Of a stretch of 64,000 bases of DNA, positions 7,348 through 61,200 are shown piece by piece. The stretch is from assembly GCA_963662715.1 (NCBI GenBank), contig OY759724.1, forward strand, positions 2,266,662 to 2,330,661, read 5' to 3'. The position numbers and the translations under genes are program-made. Numbering within the stretch: position 1 is the first letter of the stretch; every line of letters starts with the position of its first letter. The DNA is from Candidatus Omnitrophota bacterium. Lineage in GTDB: Bacteria; Omnitrophota; Gorgyraeia; Zapsychrales; JANLHA01. A model generated the notes under the pieces. That model saw only the letters and a list, made by a program, of their open reading frames with translations. It had not been told where the DNA came from and did no database searches.

Positions 7348-7704
7348 ATGAAGGTGAATAAAGGAGAAATTATTGCTCAAATTGAAAAGAAATATTTAAG
7401 ATCGGATCTGCCTAAGCTGGAAGTGGGAGATACGATCAAGATGCGGATAAAGGTCGTCGAAGCCGATAAGGAACGCATTCATCCTTTCGAAGGTTTTATT
7501 ATCCGCAAGACAGGCAGAGGGTTAAAAGGGACGTTTACTGTCCGTAAGATTTCTTATGGCGAAGGGATCGAAAGGACATTTCCCATCCATTCCCCGGTCA
7601 TTGAAAGTATTAAGGTCATAGCTAAAGGCGACGTACGGAGAGCAAAATTATACTACCTCCGTGACCGTATCGGTAAGAAAGCGCGAGTGAAAAAGAAAGT
7701 ATAA
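7348..7704 (+). CDS. rplS: 50S ribosomal protein L19.
   Basis: 118 aa with a typical L19 sequence ('FEGFIIRKTGRGLKGTFTVRKISYGEGIERTFPIHSP'). Confidence 0.93.
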   Translation: MKVNKGEIIAQIEKKYLRSDLPKLEVGDTIKMRIKVVEADKERIHPFEGFIIRKTGRGLKGTFTVRKISYGEGIERTFPIHSPVIESIKVIAKGDVRRAKLYYLRDRIGKKARVKKKV

Positions 7705-24326: not shown

Positions 24327-25517
24327 TTATTCAGGTATTAATAACACAACGGTCGTAGTATTGTGAAAGCCGCTTAATTGTCCGGGTATTAAGCCGATTT
24401 CCCCGTAAGTTTCAAACCCTATGATGGGAACGTCGCCAATAACGTTTTTGACGGCTTTCACCCCTTCAAAGAAATCCTCTCCCAGAATCAAAGAACGGCA
24501 GACACAGTCAAAAACAAAAGCCCCGGCCAATTTTGCTCCTCCGCTGGATTTTAGCGCCAGTTCAGCGGCTATCTTGGCTGACTGAATCTGGTCCTCTTTC
24601 GGGCTTTTGCAGATCCTCAGCACAGATCCTTCAATCATCGTGCAGGCAAAATTAAGCGATCCGTCTTCATTGATTGATAAAGGCACGCGTATTTTGTAGT
24701 CGCTGCCGGTTTCTAGGCCTGCTTCAAAACGAATAAGAAACGCGCCAATGTCTTCAGCCGTTTTGAGTTGATCGACATCAACGCCGATTTTTTTCGCTTC
24801 TTCTTTCACGGATTCTTTCCAGACATCAAAAGCTTTTCTCCCGTCGACTTCATAAACCACGTTCCCTTTGGCCTTTGTAATGGTCAGCGGTTCAGAGACC
24901 GGAGAGTGCCCGTGTTTGACTCCGATAGCGACAGGAGTTTTGGACGACACCATACAGACCGTCAGGGCATCGGTCACCGCTTGCTGATTGAGAAAGACTT
25001 TGGTCTCCTTGAATTGCAGGTCATCCCCGGCAGCACCCCCGCTTAACGTGACATCCGCTCCCAGTTCCGATAAGGCCGCCAGAGAAGCTTCTTCGCCGTT
25101 GCCGGCGAGCCCGTCAACATGAAGAATGGCCGATTTGTGGGGGAAGTCATCCGCTGCTTCCGAAAAAGAGGCTTTGGCTTTGCGGATAGCTTCAAGTTGG
25201 TCTTCCTTGAGCCCGGTTCCAAGTCCAGCCGAAAATTTATGCGTATCAGAAGAAATCAGGCCGCAGACAATGCTTTCTTTGTCAGCTTTGGCTTCATTGA
25301 ATTCTCCCGCCGAAGAACTTCCGATCAGGAGAGCATCTCCGACGACTTCTTTGACCCCTTTTAACACATTGTTATAGTTGTATTTGCTGGAAGCATAAAC
25401 AACAGCTAAATCAATTTTGTCTGTCCCCAATTTGTCCAAGGCTTGCTGAGCGACTTGTTTACCGACCGTATAGCTTTCTTCCCCTTTTGCGATCGCAGTA
25501 GAAAATTTGGTGCCCAT
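24327..25517 (-). CDS. FIST-domain sensor protein (FIST N + C), stand-alone with no output domain.
   Basis: 'DLAVVYASSKYNYNNVLKGVKEVVG...LIGSSSAGEF', the FIST_N pattern. The C-terminal half has the FIST_C-like 'GFETYGEIGLIP'. Confidence 0.7.
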   Translation of the reverse strand: MGTKFSTAIAKGEESYTVGKQVAQQALDKLGTDKIDLAVVYASSKYNYNNVLKGVKEVVGDALLIGSSSAGEFNEAKADKESIVCGLISSDTHKFSAGLGTGLKEDQLEAIRKAKASFSEAADDFPHKSAILHVDGLAGNGEEASLAALSELGADVTLSGGAAGDDLQFKETKVFLNQQAVTDALTVCMVSSKTPVAIGVKHGHSPVSEPLTITKAKGNVVYEVDGRKAFDVWKESVKEEAKKIGVDVDQLKTAEDIGAFLIRFEAGLETGSDYKIRVPLSINEDGSLNFACTMIEGSVLRICKSPKEDQIQSAKIAAELALKSSGGAKLAGAFVFDCVCRSLILGEDFFEGVKAVKNVIGDVPIIGFETYGEIGLIPGQLSGFHNTTTVVLLIPE

Positions 25518-25873: not shown

Positions 25874-27376
25874 ATGAGTTCTTTTAACGTTATATGCCAG
25901 CGAGTTGACAGTTTCTTGAGAGATAAGACTTGTCATAAACTCATTATCCTTGCAGGGATATTTTTCCGTTTGACCCAATATTTTTATAACCGCTCCTTAT
26001 GGTTTGACGAAGCTTATGTCGCCAATAAGCTCATAAAATTTTCTCTTTCAGAATTAATCCAGGGGCCTTTCCCGGAGAAATCCTTGGCTTACCCTTTTGG
26101 CTTTTCCTTTATAGAAAAAATAATGGTTGTTTTGTTCGGGAGCCACGAATATGTTTTTCGTTTTTTTCCTTTGTTTTACGGGGTGATATCCCTGATCCTT
26201 TTTTATGCCCTTATTATCCACGTCCTATCTCCCAGAGCCAGATTTGTTGCCTTATGCCTGTTTGCTTTTTCCCCTTCATTAATTCTGTATTCGACAGAGT
26301 TGAAACCTTATTCGGGGGATGTCGCCTTTGTGTTAATGTTTATGGTGGCTATAAAATGGTTCCTTGATAACAAATTAACAAAACGATCGGTGTCGTTCGT
26401 GAGCCTTTTAGGCGGTATTCTCATATGGTTCTCTCATCCCATAATATTTGTTTTGGCGGGGGCAGGGATAGTTCTGTCCATTATTAAAATAAAAGAGAGG
26501 AAGGAGCCGTTGTGGCGTCCTTTGGCCTTTGTCCTTTTTTCCTGGATGTCCAGTTTTGCCCTGAATTATTTCTTTGTCCTGAGGGTTTTCTCCCGGGGGG
26601 AGTATCTTACGGATTATTGGGCGAAGTTTTTTTTGCCCGTGTTTCCGGTAAAACTGGTCAACCTGATTTTTCATTACACCATTTTTCTTGATGTGTTCCG
26701 TTATCCGGTCAGCGCGAAATTCCCCTTTTTGTGTAGTATTTTATTTCTTGCCGGTTGTGTGAAAATGTTTTACCGTGAACGGCGGGACTTTTTCCTTCTC
26801 ATCAGCCCTATCGTGATCACTCTATTGGCATCGGTTCTGCACATATATCCTTTCTTTGAACGTTTAATATTGTTCCTTGTCCCTTTTTATATCCTCTTTG
26901 TTGCGGAAGGGGCTGACGGTGTTATCGAAAGAATTAAATATAAAAATATTTGCCCTCTGCTCATGTTGCTCTTTGTCCTGCCGGCATTTTTTACCGAATG
27001 TTCACGTGTGGGAGACCCTTCTTTTTATCGTTATGAGGAAAGCCGAGAGGTGGTCCGGTATATGGTGGAACATAAACAAGCGGGGGATTATTTTATTTTG
27101 CCGGATAAATCCCAAGCGGCTTTTCGATTTTATTCTGGCCGAATGAATTTCGTCCCGTCCGCCAGCGGCATTAAGGTGTTGTCCTGCACGCATGAACTGC
27201 AATCCGTAATTAAGTCTGTATCCGGCAGAGACCGCTTCTGGTTGTTTTTGGCCCATGTGGGCAAAAAGGATAAAGAATTTATGCTGGAGATGATGCATCA
27301 TCATGCCGAACTTGTTGATTCCTTTTTTCAGTCGGGTGCCCGAGCTTACCTTTTTCAGATAGAACCCGATCCGTAA
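25874..27376 (+). CDS. Polytopic membrane protein, putative GT-C-fold glycosyltransferase (ArnT/PMT-like).
   Basis: About 12 hydrophobic segments, and an N-terminal region like the first extracytoplasmic loop of GT39/83 ('NRSLWFDEAYVANK'). Confidence 0.55.
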   Translation: MSSFNVICQRVDSFLRDKTCHKLIILAGIFFRLTQYFYNRSLWFDEAYVANKLIKFSLSELIQGPFPEKSLAYPFGFSFIEKIMVVLFGSHEYVFRFFPLFYGVISLILFYALIIHVLSPRARFVALCLFAFSPSLILYSTELKPYSGDVAFVLMFMVAIKWFLDNKLTKRSVSFVSLLGGILIWFSHPIIFVLAGAGIVLSIIKIKERKEPLWRPLAFVLFSWMSSFALNYFFVLRVFSRGEYLTDYWAKFFLPVFPVKLVNLIFHYTIFLDVFRYPVSAKFPFLCSILFLAGCVKMFYRERRDFFLLISPIVITLLASVLHIYPFFERLILFLVPFYILFVAEGADGVIERIKYKNICPLLMLLFVLPAFFTECSRVGDPSFYRYEESREVVRYMVEHKQAGDYFILPDKSQAAFRFYSGRMNFVPSASGIKVLSCTHELQSVIKSVSGRDRFWLFLAHVGKKDKEFMLEMMHHHAELVDSFFQSGARAYLFQIEPDP

Positions 27377-27454
27377 TATTATCTGAGCGTTACGAATCAG
27401 CAGGTTTGAGAGTGCCCCGGCGTCTTGTCTCGGCCGGCATTATATGTTATATTT

Positions 27455-27698
27455 CAAGTAAGCCGATAAAGGTAAACTTGAGGAAACTCGAGGACACAAA
27501 ACTCCAGACCTAAGTTATTCGAGAACCGGGAGGGCCCTGAAGTTCGGGGCAGGCGTAGACGGTGTGTGGTTATTAGGATGATAAGGTGGCTGAGTTGCCG
27601 TGAGCTGGTTGTGGGGTTAACATCCCGTCTTTATCGGCTTGTTTTCTTTAATACCAACCCTTATTGTTAAAACTCCGTTAACAGTAAGGGTTTTTTTT
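27455..27698 (+). ncRNA. Candidate structured small RNA of about 240 nt, class unknown. It has a 12-bp long-range closing helix and ends in a canonical intrinsic terminator.
   Basis: 27460-27471 'aagccgataaag' pairs perfectly with 27628-27639 'ctttatcggctt'. An inner helix pairs 'ggatg' (27556) with 'catcc' (27621). The terminator at 27658-27698 has a 12/13-bp stem followed by T8. Confidence 0.3.
27658..27698 (+). terminator. Rho-independent terminator.
   Basis: 'cccttattgttaa-aactccg-ttaacagtaaggg' followed by 'tttttttt'. Confidence 0.75.
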
Positions 27699-27921
27699 AT
27701 CCCGGATCCGCAAGGATTGAAGACGTCCGGGCATCAAAGGCGTGCTCTCGCTTCCATGGCAAACCCGTTGAATAACTTTGAGATAAGCCGTTTTTACGGG
27801 CGCCTGTCCTGTCCTCTGCCCGGCACCCGGACGCCATCACGGAGCAAAGACAAGACTTTTTCGTCCAATCGTTAATGAAATCCTATCATATATAAAAAAA
27901 TATGTTATAATATCACCTCAA

Positions 27922-28227
27922 ATGAGCCAACAAAAACTAATACGAGTTTATCAAGATCTCGATTTGAAAGATATAAAAGAGCATCTGCTTATTTACGGGG
28001 ACTTGTCCGGGGCCTGCGCTAACTGCCAAACTGTTGATATCAAATTGAACCAGGCCAAGTGTCCCGATTGCCAAACGGAATTCAAGTATATTGCCTTCCG
28101 AAACATTAAGAATCATTATCCTAAAGTCCATCATATAAAGACAGAGCGCCCGGATATCCTGATTGTTGATCATGATGACTACAAGCGTATGATGGGAGCT
28201 TTGAAAGCCGAGGAGTTTTTGAAATGA
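27922..28227 (+). CDS. Small zinc-ribbon protein (CxxC...CxxC), translationally coupled to the M20 peptidase gene.
   Basis: 'CANCQTV...CPDCQTEF'. Its stop overlaps the next gene's start as ATGA. Confidence 0.6.
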   Translation: MSQQKLIRVYQDLDLKDIKEHLLIYGDLSGACANCQTVDIKLNQAKCPDCQTEFKYIAFRNIKNHYPKVHHIKTERPDILIVDHDDYKRMMGALKAEEFLK

Positions 28228-29369
28228 TTCATAAGGACCGGTTGGTCACGTTAACTCAAAAGGTCATAAGCATTAATTCTGAAAATCCCCCTGGGCGGGA
28301 ACAAAAGTTGGCCAAATTTATCGCCCAGGATATGAAATCATTGGGCCTGCAGGTTAAATGTGTGTCTTTTGCCTCCAAACGGCCTAACATCATTGCGACT
28401 TTGAAGGGAACCTGGCCGAGAAAAAAGGCCCGGCAGAAAGCCCTGCTTATCACGCCGCATTTTGATACGGTGCCTATCGGCCAGGGATGGACGCAGGATC
28501 CGCTGGGGGGGCGCATTATCCGTGGCCGGATTTATGGCCGGGGAGCCACGGACGATAAAGGGAACTTGGCGTGCTGTATGGAAGTCATGCGCAGTCTGGT
28601 CGAGGACCGTGTTAAGCTGAACCGGGATCTGGTCATGGCGGCAACGGTTGACGAAGAAACGGGCAGCCATCAGGGTATCGTGCCGCTGCTGGACAAGAAG
28701 ATCCTTCAGCCGCATACGGCCGTGATCCTGGATTCTGATGACTTTAACACCATTATTGCTCAGAAGGGGTTGTTGCATTGCCGGGTGCAGATTTTCGGGA
28801 AAAAGGCGCACGGGGCGTATAACTGGCAGGGAATCAATGCGATCGAGGTCGCCGCCAGAATTATTGTTAAGTTGAAAAAACACAAATTCAAATTTTCCAA
28901 GCATGTTCTGCTTCAGCCCCCGACTGTGAATGTCGGAACGATCAGGGGCGGGGATAAAGTCAATATGGTCGCCGATCATTGTGAGTTGAGCCTGGATGTC
29001 CGTTTCCTCCCGGGCATGAAAAGCGCCGTGTTGTTGCAAGATATAAGGCACATGATACAGACGGAAACGAAACGGTTTAAAATTGTCGTGGACGACCTTC
29101 AGCAGCCCTATGAAATTGATGCCGCGCATCCTCTGGTAGATACGTATGTGCAGACCGCCCGTTCTTTGGGCATCCGCACGTCCCTTAAGGGCAGTGAAGG
29201 AGCCACCGTGATTACGTTTTTTAAGAAACATAACATTCCGGCTTTCGCAACAGGGTACGGAGCTCAGGGGACAGCGCACACAACGGATGAGTACGCCAGA
29301 GTATCCACCCTCCATAAAGGGGCCCGCCTGCTGGAAAAATTTATAAAGGACTTTGACCAGAAATTATGA
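28224..29369 (+). CDS. M20-family metallopeptidase (ArgE/DapE-like deacylase).
   Basis: 'ITPHFDTVPIG', 'GRGATDDKGNLA' (metal-binding Asp) and 'DEETGS', the M20 signature triad. Confidence 0.85.
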   Translation: MIHKDRLVTLTQKVISINSENPPGREQKLAKFIAQDMKSLGLQVKCVSFASKRPNIIATLKGTWPRKKARQKALLITPHFDTVPIGQGWTQDPLGGRIIRGRIYGRGATDDKGNLACCMEVMRSLVEDRVKLNRDLVMAATVDEETGSHQGIVPLLDKKILQPHTAVILDSDDFNTIIAQKGLLHCRVQIFGKKAHGAYNWQGINAIEVAARIIVKLKKHKFKFSKHVLLQPPTVNVGTIRGGDKVNMVADHCELSLDVRFLPGMKSAVLLQDIRHMIQTETKRFKIVVDDLQQPYEIDAAHPLVDTYVQTARSLGIRTSLKGSEGATVITFFKKHNIPAFATGYGAQGTAHTTDEYARVSTLHKGARLLEKFIKDFDQKL

Positions 29370-59519: not shown

Positions 59520-61200
59520 TCATTTCAAATTAAATGTTTTCTTGCTCGTCATTGGATATGTCTTTCTCATGATGGGGAACGGCCTGGTGCCGTTGACACA
59601 TCCGGACGAGGTTTTTTACGCCCAGACAGCCAAAGAAATGATAGCCCATGACAGTTGGTTAACTCCGAGGCTTTTTGACCAGCCGCAATTTGAAAAGCCG
59701 ATCCTCTTTTACTGGATGACGGCTGTCTTGATGAAAGGGGCCGGTTTAAATGCTTTTACAGCACGTTTTTGGCCGGCATTTTTTGGTGTCCTGGGAATGC
59801 TTGTCGTCTATTGGATGGCGTGGATGTTCTTTGAAAGAAAAGACGTCGCTTTTTTATCCGGTCTGATCCTGGGGACATCTACTCTCCATATCTCTTTGTC
59901 CAGGGCCGTATTAACAGATATGATGTTTTCGATGTGGGTCATCTTGTCTTTGCTGTCTTTTTATTTTGCTTATCGCTATCAAAAATATAAATTTTGGGGG
60001 ATCCTGAGTTGCTTTTCCTTTATGGGCTTAGCTGTCCTGACGAAAGGTTTGTTGGGGATGTGTTTCCCGGCCGGAACTATTGGCATTTTCCTTTTATTGA
60101 AAAAAGACCTGCGGTTTTTAGCTCATAAGTCTGTGGTCATTGGGTTCCTTATTTTTTGGGGGATTGCCCTCCCGTGGCATATCTTCATGACGGCCCGGTA
60201 CGGAGATTCGTTTTATCAGGAGTACATTCATAATGTGCATGTCCGGCGTTTGTTTGTCTCGGAACATGACAAATGCAATACCTGGTACTTTTATCTTTTA
60301 ACGGTTGTGGTCGGACTTTTTCCTTGGACCTTTATTTTCGTGCCGACGGCGCGTTTCCTTTCAAAAATTCGGAAAAAGACGGAAAAAGAGAAACAGTCAT
60401 TTTTATTTATTTTGTCTTGGGTGTGCGGCGTGCTTTTGTTTATTCAACCGGCTCAGTCAAAATTGGCAAGTTATGTTTTTCCGGCTTTTCCGGCCTTTGC
60501 GATATTGGCTGCCTTTTGTTTGACACTCTTTCTGGAACAAACAGGAGAGGGAGAGAGCCGGGGCGTCAAAGCTGTCCAACTGAGTATGTGCGTGTTCGGT
60601 GCGGTCCTGGCTGTGGTGAGTGTGGGGGCTATTTTTGCCAGAGCCTTTTACCGCTCTTTTGTCCCGCATCCCTTACCGGTCTACGTTATGGCTTTGCTTT
60701 TTTTATCTTTAGCTGCGGGCCTTTTCCTCTCGGCTTATCGAAAACAATTCCAAAGGATTCCGGTTCTTTTGCCCCTGTTCCCTTTATTTCTTATCTTGTC
60801 ATTCCTGATGTTTCGGCCTTTAGCCGAACCCTGGATTTCGTGCCGGAAGATTGCGGATATTTTTAACAGTATCGATCAGTCCGACACAACTGTTGTCGCC
60901 AGTAAATTCTATGTCCGCGGGATAAGATTCTTCACCGACCGGGATGTCGCGACGATTGATGTTTGGGGCAAAGGGTTTTTCAGCCCCCATCCCATTCCTT
61001 TTCTTGACACGGATAAGAAAGCCATGGATTTCTTTAAGCAGCAACCCGAGACCTACGCTATTGTTAAAGAAAATGATGTCTCAGATATCAAAAGAATCTG
61101 CCAATTAAGCGGATGTTCTGTCCGTTATATGGGGGGGCTGGGTGGCAAATATATCTTGAAGGTTCAGTCTGGAATTCCCAAGAAAGAAGTTGTAGACTAA
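59479..61200 (+). CDS. GT-C-fold glycosyltransferase of the ArnT/PMT type (GT39/GT83-like), with at least 12 TM segments.
   Basis: 'PLTHPDEVFYAQTAKEMIAHDSWLTPRLFDQPQFEKPILFYWM', the conserved first periplasmic loop of ArnT-like enzymes. Confidence 0.8.
   Translation: MLPLTNYFLMKNASHFKLNVFLLVIGYVFLMMGNGLVPLTHPDEVFYAQTAKEMIAHDSWLTPRLFDQPQFEKPILFYWMTAVLMKGAGLNAFTARFWPAFFGVLGMLVVYWMAWMFFERKDVAFLSGLILGTSTLHISLSRAVLTDMMFSMWVILSLLSFYFAYRYQKYKFWGILSCFSFMGLAVLTKGLLGMCFPAGTIGIFLLLKKDLRFLAHKSVVIGFLIFWGIALPWHIFMTARYGDSFYQEYIHNVHVRRLFVSEHDKCNTWYFYLLTVVVGLFPWTFIFVPTARFLSKIRKKTEKEKQSFLFILSWVCGVLLFIQPAQSKLASYVFPAFPAFAILAAFCLTLFLEQTGEGESRGVKAVQLSMCVFGAVLAVVSVGAIFARAFYRSFVPHPLPVYVMALLFLSLAAGLFLSAYRKQFQRIPVLLPLFPLFLILSFLMFRPLAEPWISCRKIADIFNSIDQSDTTVVASKFYVRGIRFFTDRDVATIDVWGKGFFSPHPIPFLDTDKKAMDFFKQQPETYAIVKENDVSDIKRICQLSGCSVRYMGGLGGKYILKVQSGIPKKEVVD

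Follow-up and report, generated by a model that had tools for sequence, protein, structure and literature searches.

What is transcribed from an intergenic gap that holds a long inverted repeat followed by a terminator, and which signal, if any, does the product read? The question is raised by positions 27377-27921 of a 64,000-nt stretch of Candidatus Omnitrophota DNA (GenBank assembly GCA_963662715.1, contig OY759724.1, positions 2,266,662 to 2,330,661 of the forward strand), which was analysed as a whole and is called the window here. The gap measures 545 nt, is truly non-coding and lies between open reading frames (ORFs) at 25874-27376 (+) and 27922-28227 (+). A first-pass annotation had placed in it a structured small RNA without a match to the common riboswitches. 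Judged from its sequence, the structured RNA is almost certainly a class-I cyclic-di-GMP (c-di-GMP) riboswitch (GEMM-I, RF01051), in a form typical of Candidatus Omnitrophota. An apparent orphan RNA thus gains a known function, namely predicted c-di-GMP sensing.

Identity of the RNA

The covariance-model scan that the first-pass annotation had suggested was run with Rfam and returns a complete c-di-GMP-I aptamer at 27461-27602 (+), which scores 63 bits (gathering score 35; E = 6e-12) over an alignment spanning model positions 1-87 of 87. The earlier statement that no common riboswitch matched is overturned by this end-to-end alignment. In it, a 58-nt insertion occupies the loop of the second hairpin (P3), so that the riboswitch consensus is not recognisable by eye. 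RF01051 is the only Rfam family detected in the 64-kb window; 6S RNA, transfer-messenger RNA, RNase P and signal recognition particle RNA are absent from the window at gathering scores and from 27300-28000 at E <= 1.

Relatives were collected from 38 genome loci fetched around homologues of the 101-aa protein encoded downstream of the gap, and from a metagenome scan with a pattern for the P2 hairpin that left the arms of the inverted repeat unconstrained, which together give about 65 distinct relatives of the same layout. The family counts below use differing subsets: 55 distinct aligned relatives (alignment A2) unless stated otherwise, 45 distinct ones for hairpin P4, 64 for the U-run, and 66 for energies and the second terminator (T2). 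A c-di-GMP-I match lies upstream of the homologue of the 101-aa gene, on the same strand, at 18 of the 38 Omnitrophota genome loci, and the relatives score 35-71 bits with RF01051. Across the largely uncultured phylum Omnitrophota this predicted c-di-GMP riboswitch is widespread, and no published link between the phylum and c-di-GMP riboswitches turned up in the literature. The shared layout begins with a promoter, consisting of a -35 TTGTC box and an extended -10 TGnTATAnT that ends about 7 nt before (A/G)AGCCGAUAAAG. The body follows, with P2 and its GAAA loop, P3 with a tetraloop receptor and a conserved extension of 50-100 nt, and the tail UUGCCGAAG. The 3' part comprises P4, a small and variable hairpin, then the 3' arm CUUUAUCGGCU with a U-run behind it and, usually, the classical terminator T2.

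All elements of the window copy lie on the forward strand. The promoter scan finds a -35-like hexamer TTGTCT at 27425-27430, where TTGTC(T/C) recurs at equal spacing in the relatives, and an extended -10 TGTTATATT at 27445-27453; in essentially all relatives the TGnTATAnT element stands about 7 nt before AGCCGAUAAAG. The predicted +1, A27460, is the seventh base past the -10 and opens the P1 5' strand AAGCCG (27460-27465), which is followed by the joining strand J1/2, AUAAAG (27466-27471). The P2 hairpin (27472-27497; P1 in Rfam nomenclature) contains the pairs G27472-C27497 and U27473-A27496 and a stem 27477-27482/27487-27492 capped by the GAAA loop at 27483-27486; A27498 follows. The P3 5' strand (27500-27519) is paired by RNAalifold with the 3' strand (27577-27596), which is also placed by the Rfam alignment, with compensatory changes such as UA in 14 and CG in 10. 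The two strands carry the halves of the tetraloop receptor, CCUAAG at 27509-27514 and UAAGG at 27582-27586. The 3' tail GCCGUG (27597-27602), likewise placed by the Rfam alignment, includes a CC that is invariant in the relatives. The GAAA tetraloop is invariant as well, 5 of the 6 P2 stem pairs show compensatory changes, and the P3 pairs co-vary.

The lineage-specific extension of P3 (27520-27576) replaces a loop of 3 nt in the model and carries the motif ACCGGGA(A/G)GGCCC...GGGCA...AGAC, conserved in the alignment. A further alignment (A3) shows it as ACCGGGA(A/G)GGCCC, a hairpin, GGGCA, AGAC and GGU..., an arrangement absent from the Rfam consensus. Its role is possibly contact with P4.

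The ligand-binding residues can be compared with those of Vc2, the Vibrio cholerae c-di-GMP-I aptamer that serves as reference structure, in which G14-C93 closes P1 and the ligand contacts C15, C17-G20 of J1/2, and C92 (PMC5049679 Table 1; PMC11705072). There, G20 pseudo-pairs with the ligand, C92 pairs with its other guanine and A47 intercalates (PMC5049679; PMC11705072). The Rfam-based equivalences are G27471 for G20, AUAAAG 27466-27471 for J1/2, A27498 for A47 and C27598 for C92. The G20 and C92 equivalents are invariant in the relatives and that of A47 nearly so; within J1/2, five of the six positions are invariant and the U is kept in at least 90%. The GEMM-Ib riboswitch for 3',3'-cyclic GMP-AMP (cGAMP) shares the same fold, and its cGAMP-selective members have A at position 20. 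Membership in that group was considered and rejected, since the position-20 equivalent in the present family is an invariant G, which predicts selectivity for c-di-GMP.

Explanations outside the riboswitches, namely mobile-element inverted repeats, a 6S-like RNA or an unrelated new small RNA, would account for a bare inverted repeat with a terminator and for nothing else at the locus. The first-pass annotation had entertained all three. The 6S-like option finds no Rfam match in 27300-28000 even at E <= 1. As to the termini of a miniature inverted-repeat transposable element, the 64 kb hold no exact copy beyond the two arms, their flanks show no target-site duplication, the promoter stands at a fixed 7 nt upstream in all relatives, and the arms of the roughly 65 relatives enclose the same aptamer. 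With the full-length Rfam match added, the probability left to this group of explanations is negligible. One-mismatch copies of the 5' arm occur at 7460-7471 (+) and 60018-60029 (-), and are compatible with chance.

The closing helix

The perfect 12-bp inverted repeat consists of AAGCCGATAAAG at 27460-27471 and CTTTATCGGCTT at 27629-27640, with 157 nt between the arms. It is as real as the first-pass annotation had it, apart from the 3' arm, which had been placed one base too early (27628-27639). The accompanying chance estimate of about 0.01 comes close: of 20,000 shuffled versions of the 545-nt gap, 93 (about 0.005) contain a perfect 12-mer inverted repeat whose arms are at most 300 nt apart. 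The minimum free energy (MFE) fold of 27458-27702 reaches -83 kcal/mol (z = -3.6) and retains both the long helix and the terminator. An additional inner helix between ggatg and catcc had also been proposed and does not hold: ggatg lies at 27576-27580 rather than at 27556, and catcc (27621-27625) sits in P4. This pairing is incompatible with P4 as well as with the conserved 3' strand of P3, and is absent in the relatives. The broader proposal, a structured non-coding RNA of about 180-240 nt with its own predicted promoter, a long-range helix and an intrinsic terminator at its end, is borne out.

The helix is probably a composite, whose outer 6 bp are P1 and whose inner 6 bp are an extension that sequesters the pocket strand J1/2. 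P1 joins 27460-27465 to CGGCUU at 27635-27640, so that its 3' strand lies 36 nt beyond the C92 equivalent; the canonical register, adjacent to C92, allows only 2 bp. The inner half pairs J1/2 with CUUUAU at 27629-27634, as read from the inverted repeat and from pair counts in the relatives. The interval between C92 and the 3' strand is partly taken up by the extra hairpin P4 (27613-27626; stem 27613-27617/27622-27626). In 82% of the 45 distinct relatives a hairpin of at least 4 bp ends 0-3 nt before the 3' arm, with differing stem sequences.

The relatives keep the 12 pairs, and their comparison supports the pairing to a varying degree along the helix. The outermost pair is AU in 24, GU in 11 and GC in 6, and the second is AU in 44, GU in 3, GC in 1 and UG in 1. 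One inner pair shows a swap from U-A to A-U (L083) and, in six sequences, a U.G wobble. Compensated variants also exist outside alignment A2, among them AGGCCG/CGGUCU and, in L018, GAGCCGAAAGG/CCUUUUGGCUC; in three further members (L063, L095, L135) the arm AUUGCCG pairs with CGGCAUU or CGGCGUU as U-A or U.G. RNAalifold recovers the long helix together with P2 and P3, and the unconstrained MFE fold contains it in 63 of 66 members. Position -1 is unpaired in 44 of the 55 relatives, which indicates that the helix starts at the 5' end of the transcript as given by the predicted +1.

Because the inner 6 bp occupy the ligand-contacting J1/2, a helix zipped over its full length cannot exist together with a pocket that holds c-di-GMP, and this exclusion would be the switch. 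To free J1/2, the window RNA has to spend 8.8 kcal/mol; the family median is 7.6, and 50 of 66 members then retain the outer P1. Vc2 binds c-di-GMP with picomolar to nanomolar affinity, and this binding energy exceeds the cost of opening J1/2; the ligand can thus pay for the opening. The competing helix would shift the response into the micromolar range. No conserved trap for the 5' tail was found for the period before the 3' arm is made, the median pairing probability of 0.33 stemming from a 3-bp local hairpin.

Stop signals

Directly past the helix lies the U-rich run GUUUUCUUU (27641-27649). Of 64 relatives, 67% have six or more U among the 9 nt past the arm, a content reached by 4% of background 9-mers (p = 5e-28). 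This enrichment makes helix and U-run look like a terminator or a pause (T1).

The second signal, T2 (27656-27698), is a classical intrinsic terminator with a stem 27656-27670/27678-27692 of 15 pairs, four of them G-C, a loop of 7 nt and a T8 run at 27691-27698. The first-pass annotation had rightly called it strong, and had given it 13 pairs where there are 15 and a start 19 nt past the helix where there are 15. About 50 of 66 relatives have a T2-like hairpin with a U-run 2-70 nt past the arm, with unrelated stem sequences. Native and swapped duplex energies, computed for both T2 strands against linker plus P4, 3' arm plus spacer, 5' tail, the whole upstream RNA and the aptamer body, reveal no lineage-specific complementarity of the kind expected for an antiterminator (p = 0.14-0.76), in a comparison that is low-powered if antiterminator motifs are common to the whole family. 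Without a co-varying antiterminator, T2 looks ligand-independent.

The number of stop signals varies in the family. In a subclade found upstream of rsmE, helix and U-run are the sole stop signal before the gene, with neither T2 nor an intervening promoter, and L037 has helix and U-run and no clear classical second terminator. In seven members upstream of rsmE (L050, L062, L066, L078, L101, L104, L106) the U-run pairs with a downstream A-run into a hairpin of about 17 bp, which overlaps the end of the arm (GGCUUUUUUCUUUUUGC/GCAAAAAGAAAAAAGCC) and is followed by a second hairpin. L078, L101 and L104 carry this two-hairpin module twice, and no Shine-Dalgarno sequence precedes the rsmE ATG in the subclade.

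T2 itself is modified in some lineages. In L067, L071, L096 and L103 its 3' strand GUUGGGAU apparently also supplies the -35 box (TTGGGA) for the promoter of the GH1 or wzx gene that follows, so that terminator and promoter overlap. In L024, at about 2740-2975, the terminator hairpin seen in L026 (ACCCUUAAA...UUUAAGGGU) is split by an insertion of about 230 nt. The insertion carries inverted repeats of its own (aaattttgcattac...gtgaatgcaaaattt) and may be a small mobile element in the terminator loop.

Proposed mechanism and alternatives

Taken as a whole, the locus is best explained, with somewhat better than even confidence, as an Omnitrophota-type c-di-GMP-I riboswitch in which a composite helix acts at T1 as an ON switch and T2 serves as a backstop. 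Transcription would start from the extended -10 promoter at about A27460. Without ligand, the continuous 12-bp stem and the U-run would act as an intrinsic terminator or strong pause and yield an RNA of about 190 nt. Binding of c-di-GMP would draw J1/2 and C92 into the pocket, leaving a stem of 6 bp below a bulky four-way junction, and polymerase would then pass T1, which is the step from which the ON polarity is inferred. At the window locus T2, apparently constitutive, would halt most of the read-through, and the 101-aa gene would be driven by its own promoter. With T2 halting read-through, the main products would be discrete non-coding RNAs of about 190 and 240 nt.

The regulated step is the tentative part of this scheme, and regulation of T1 with ON polarity is held with rather less than even confidence. 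Several points weigh against it. Within the core 10 bp of the helix, the pairs other than the one inner pair noted above are invariant on both sides, which is conserved complementarity rather than covariation; the compensatory changes that the first-pass annotation had proposed to look for are thus present in the outer pairs and one inner pair and missing from the others. The "loop" of the T1 stem is a folded domain of 157 nt, so that T1 is a putative terminator of an unproven kind, and since P1 is present in both states, T1 could fire in both or in neither. Stabilization of P1 by the ligand could equally argue for OFF polarity. The U-run is absent in a clade of five relatives (L047, L052, L099, L125, L137). 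T2 and the separate promoter of the gene leave control at T1 without an obvious effect on the downstream gene at this locus. The apparent independence of T2 is qualified by the low power of the swap comparison and by four focused tests of P4 against T2, one of which (P4 3' strand against T2 3' strand) is marginal, with p = 0.007 uncorrected for multiple tests.

In the five relatives that lack the U-run, a -10-like box (TGGTATAAT, TGGCATAAT, TGGAATAAT) stands in its place, with a GGGGCCC...GGGCCCC terminator about 20 nt past the box. A sigma-dependent pause at this box, or a small hairpin (GGUAUAAUACC), is conceivable.

The same parts can be assembled differently. The product could be a free-standing c-di-GMP-binding small RNA, made by a promoter, an aptamer and a constitutive terminator and exerting no control over read-through, in which the ligand would expel CUUUAU and P4 or otherwise remodel the 3' end. 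Such an RNA would act in trans, buffer c-di-GMP or partner a protein, for example the zinc-ribbon-like 101-aa protein. Of the earlier label "novel small RNA", this much would survive, that the riboswitch may act as a free-standing transcript; its identity is that of a known class. The strength of T2 (15 pairs plus U8) without a co-varying antiterminator speaks for this possibility, as do the consensus promoter element TGTTATAAT of the downstream gene itself, 10 nt before its ATG, a convergent 466-aa ORF downstream of the L083 copy, and the conservation of both arms far beyond what pairing alone needs. The next genes, however, lie on the same strand in nearly all loci and come from a few recurring families (101-aa, GH1, rsmE, wzx), a pattern typical of a cis-regulatory regulon. 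The rsmE subclade, with neither T2 nor a second promoter, fits poorly too. A free-standing RNA is regarded as possible and on the unlikely side. The same standing is given to a family-wide version, in which the aptamer is built into an autonomous small-RNA gene throughout Omnitrophota, the pocket-extended closing helix is the terminator stem, c-di-GMP picks the 3' end at T1 or T2, and the RNA acts in trans or with the 101-aa protein. If a free-standing c-di-GMP-responsive RNA were real, it would add a type of RNA effector to c-di-GMP signalling.

Polarity could also be reversed, with c-di-GMP stabilizing P1 and P1 plus U-run terminating only in the ligand-bound state, while in the ligand-free RNA a local hairpin with the tail or linker (27602-27609/27633-27640) would sequester the 3' arm. 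Ligand-stabilized P1 is the general rule of the class (PMC11705072, PMC5049679), and a local hairpin that uses the 3' arm, and in the window offers the P1 3' strand an alternative partner in 27602-27609, is predicted at -13 to -19 kcal/mol. That hairpin, however, would also lie directly before the U-run and would terminate too, and an OFF switch leaves the perfect complementarity of the 3' arm to J1/2 unexplained. The 5' tail is moreover predicted to be free before the arm is made, so that the 12-bp helix should form without ligand. The idea that the linker mimics the 5' tail in pairing with the 3' arm was pursued and dropped: the match is striking in L028, L038, L071 and the window, and family-wide the complementarity of linker and arm is not above shuffled expectation, with an unconvincing mean difference of -0.4 +/- 0.2 kcal/mol. 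OFF polarity is accordingly improbable. Quite improbable is a role of the inner 6 bp restricted to tuning a picomolar aptamer to a physiological dissociation constant and protecting the 5' end, with the output elsewhere, for example in RNA stability or Rho. A cost of 7.6-8.8 kcal/mol would indeed make the apparent affinity weaker, by an estimate based on the affinity of Vc2, by about six orders of magnitude, and the helix is flush with the 5' end; the strongly conserved U-run directly past the helix would then have no explanation, and no alternative output element was found.

Comparison with known riboswitches

The window RNA shares with Vc2 and RF01051 two side-by-side hairpins, a GAAA tetraloop with its receptor, and a 6-nt J1/2 between P1 and P2. 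By contrast, its P1 3' strand lies 36 nt downstream of C92, past P4, which creates the four-way junction; its 3' arm extends by six bases that pair with J1/2 itself, and P3 has a conserved extension of about 57 nt.

A parallel in layout is offered by the Bc1 c-di-GMP-I riboswitch of Bacillus thuringiensis, in which an aptamer of the same class precedes two terminator-like signals separated by a few tens of nt (PMC11218506). In Bc1, ligand unfolds T1 and leaves T2 folded, and the persisting second terminator masks the response, so that the downstream genes do not follow c-di-GMP (PMC11218506). The Bc1 terminators are local hairpins in a long leader that reaches the regulated gene and its ribosome-binding site (PMC11218506), whereas in the window the part of T1 would fall to the helix that closes the aptamer, and the gene has a separate promoter downstream of T2.

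In the pbuE adenine riboswitch, the ligand withdraws a strand that completes the terminator stem; the shared strand is the P1 3' strand/P3, which is invaded by a downstream strand. In the window, the shared strand would instead be J1/2, at the 5' end, and the terminator stem would be an extension of P1. The transcriptional ON design of the pbuE type is discussed in PMC7707468.

Discrete aptamer transcripts ended by a terminator have other counterparts, whose resemblance is one of layout only. Riboswitch-derived small RNAs include SreA and SreB of Listeria, and Rli55 and EutX are controlled by B12 riboswitches. For the S-adenosylmethionine (SAM)-II riboswitch of S. meliloti, which belongs to the same comparison, a ligand-independent terminator is described, as far as its citation in PMC11218506 goes.

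The riboswitch class is therefore already known, and what is specific to the lineage is the extension of P1 over the pocket strand, P4, the P3 extension, the double stop and the separate promoter. The proposed design is a compact variant of riboswitch logic, made of a P1 extension worth about 8 kcal/mol, an adjoining U-run, a constitutive backstop terminator and a separate promoter for the near-leaderless mRNA of the neighbouring gene. Such a design may account for a picomolar aptamer responding at physiological ligand levels. As it stands, the element is an ordinary riboswitch with interesting details.

Downstream gene and genomic context

The usual downstream neighbour of the riboswitch, in the window at 27922-28227 (+), encodes a 101-aa protein with four Cys (CxxC...CxxC), whose homologues occur only in metagenome-assembled genomes of Candidatus Omnitrophota. 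The protein has no Pfam match and no Foldseek match in the PDB better than E = 1, and its AlphaFold model is confident (predicted local distance difference test 92.8). An M20 peptidase gene (28224-29369) follows, its start overlapping the stop of the 101-aa gene. Nearly all loci have their next gene on the strand of the riboswitch, and in the majority this gene encodes the 101-aa protein, followed by the M20 peptidase; other recurring next genes are GH1 glycosidases, rsmE, a wzx-like flippase, and a small membrane protein plus csp.

The extended -10 of the 101-aa gene occupies 27903-27911 (+). It is the only exact match to TGNTATAAT in the 64-kb window. A -10 element 7-10 nt before the ATG is present at 17 of 29 loci by a strict pattern, and a few near-matches occur at equal spacing. 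Its position only 10 nt before the ATG in the window implies a near-leaderless mRNA, which is probably strongly expressed, as far as promoter sequence can tell. A general habit of leaderless promoters in the window was considered and rejected: of 68 long ORFs, 5 are preceded by a loose -10 box at 5-11 nt from an ATG, and none of these boxes has the TG extension. This rarity indicates that the promoter arrangement is specific to genes beside the riboswitch.

On the left, the gap is bordered by a PMT_2-like glycosyltransferase gene (25874-27376, +; 500 aa). None of the seven flanking proteins scanned has a GGDEF or EAL domain. A protein with FIST_N and FIST_C sensor domains is encoded at 24327-25517 (-), about 2 kb upstream of the riboswitch and on the opposite strand. 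FIST domains are often linked to signalling output domains.

Minor observations

A segment at 27777-27790 (TTTGAGATAAGCCG) resembles the riboswitch start TTTCAAGTAAGCCG (27452-27465) with 79% identity, which is compatible with chance.

Several relatives depart from the common layout. The aptamers of L017, L024 and L026 (181-188 nt) have one or two extra hairpins between P2 and P3, such as GUCCCGUAAGGGAC, and reach only 35-41 bits with Rfam, near the threshold. In L023 (positions 1-126 and 2727-2838), a 5'-truncated riboswitch match is followed about 2.6 kb downstream by a group II intron domain (RF02001, 54.6 bits), which sits shortly ahead of the 101-aa gene. L039, L081 and L109 belong to a different GEMM-I lineage, with the 5' tail UGUUUCCGAAAAG; this tail, including J1/2, is complementary to part of the terminator, for example CCUUUUC. 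Such complementarity suggests that pairing between pocket strand and expression platform may be a wider theme in the class.

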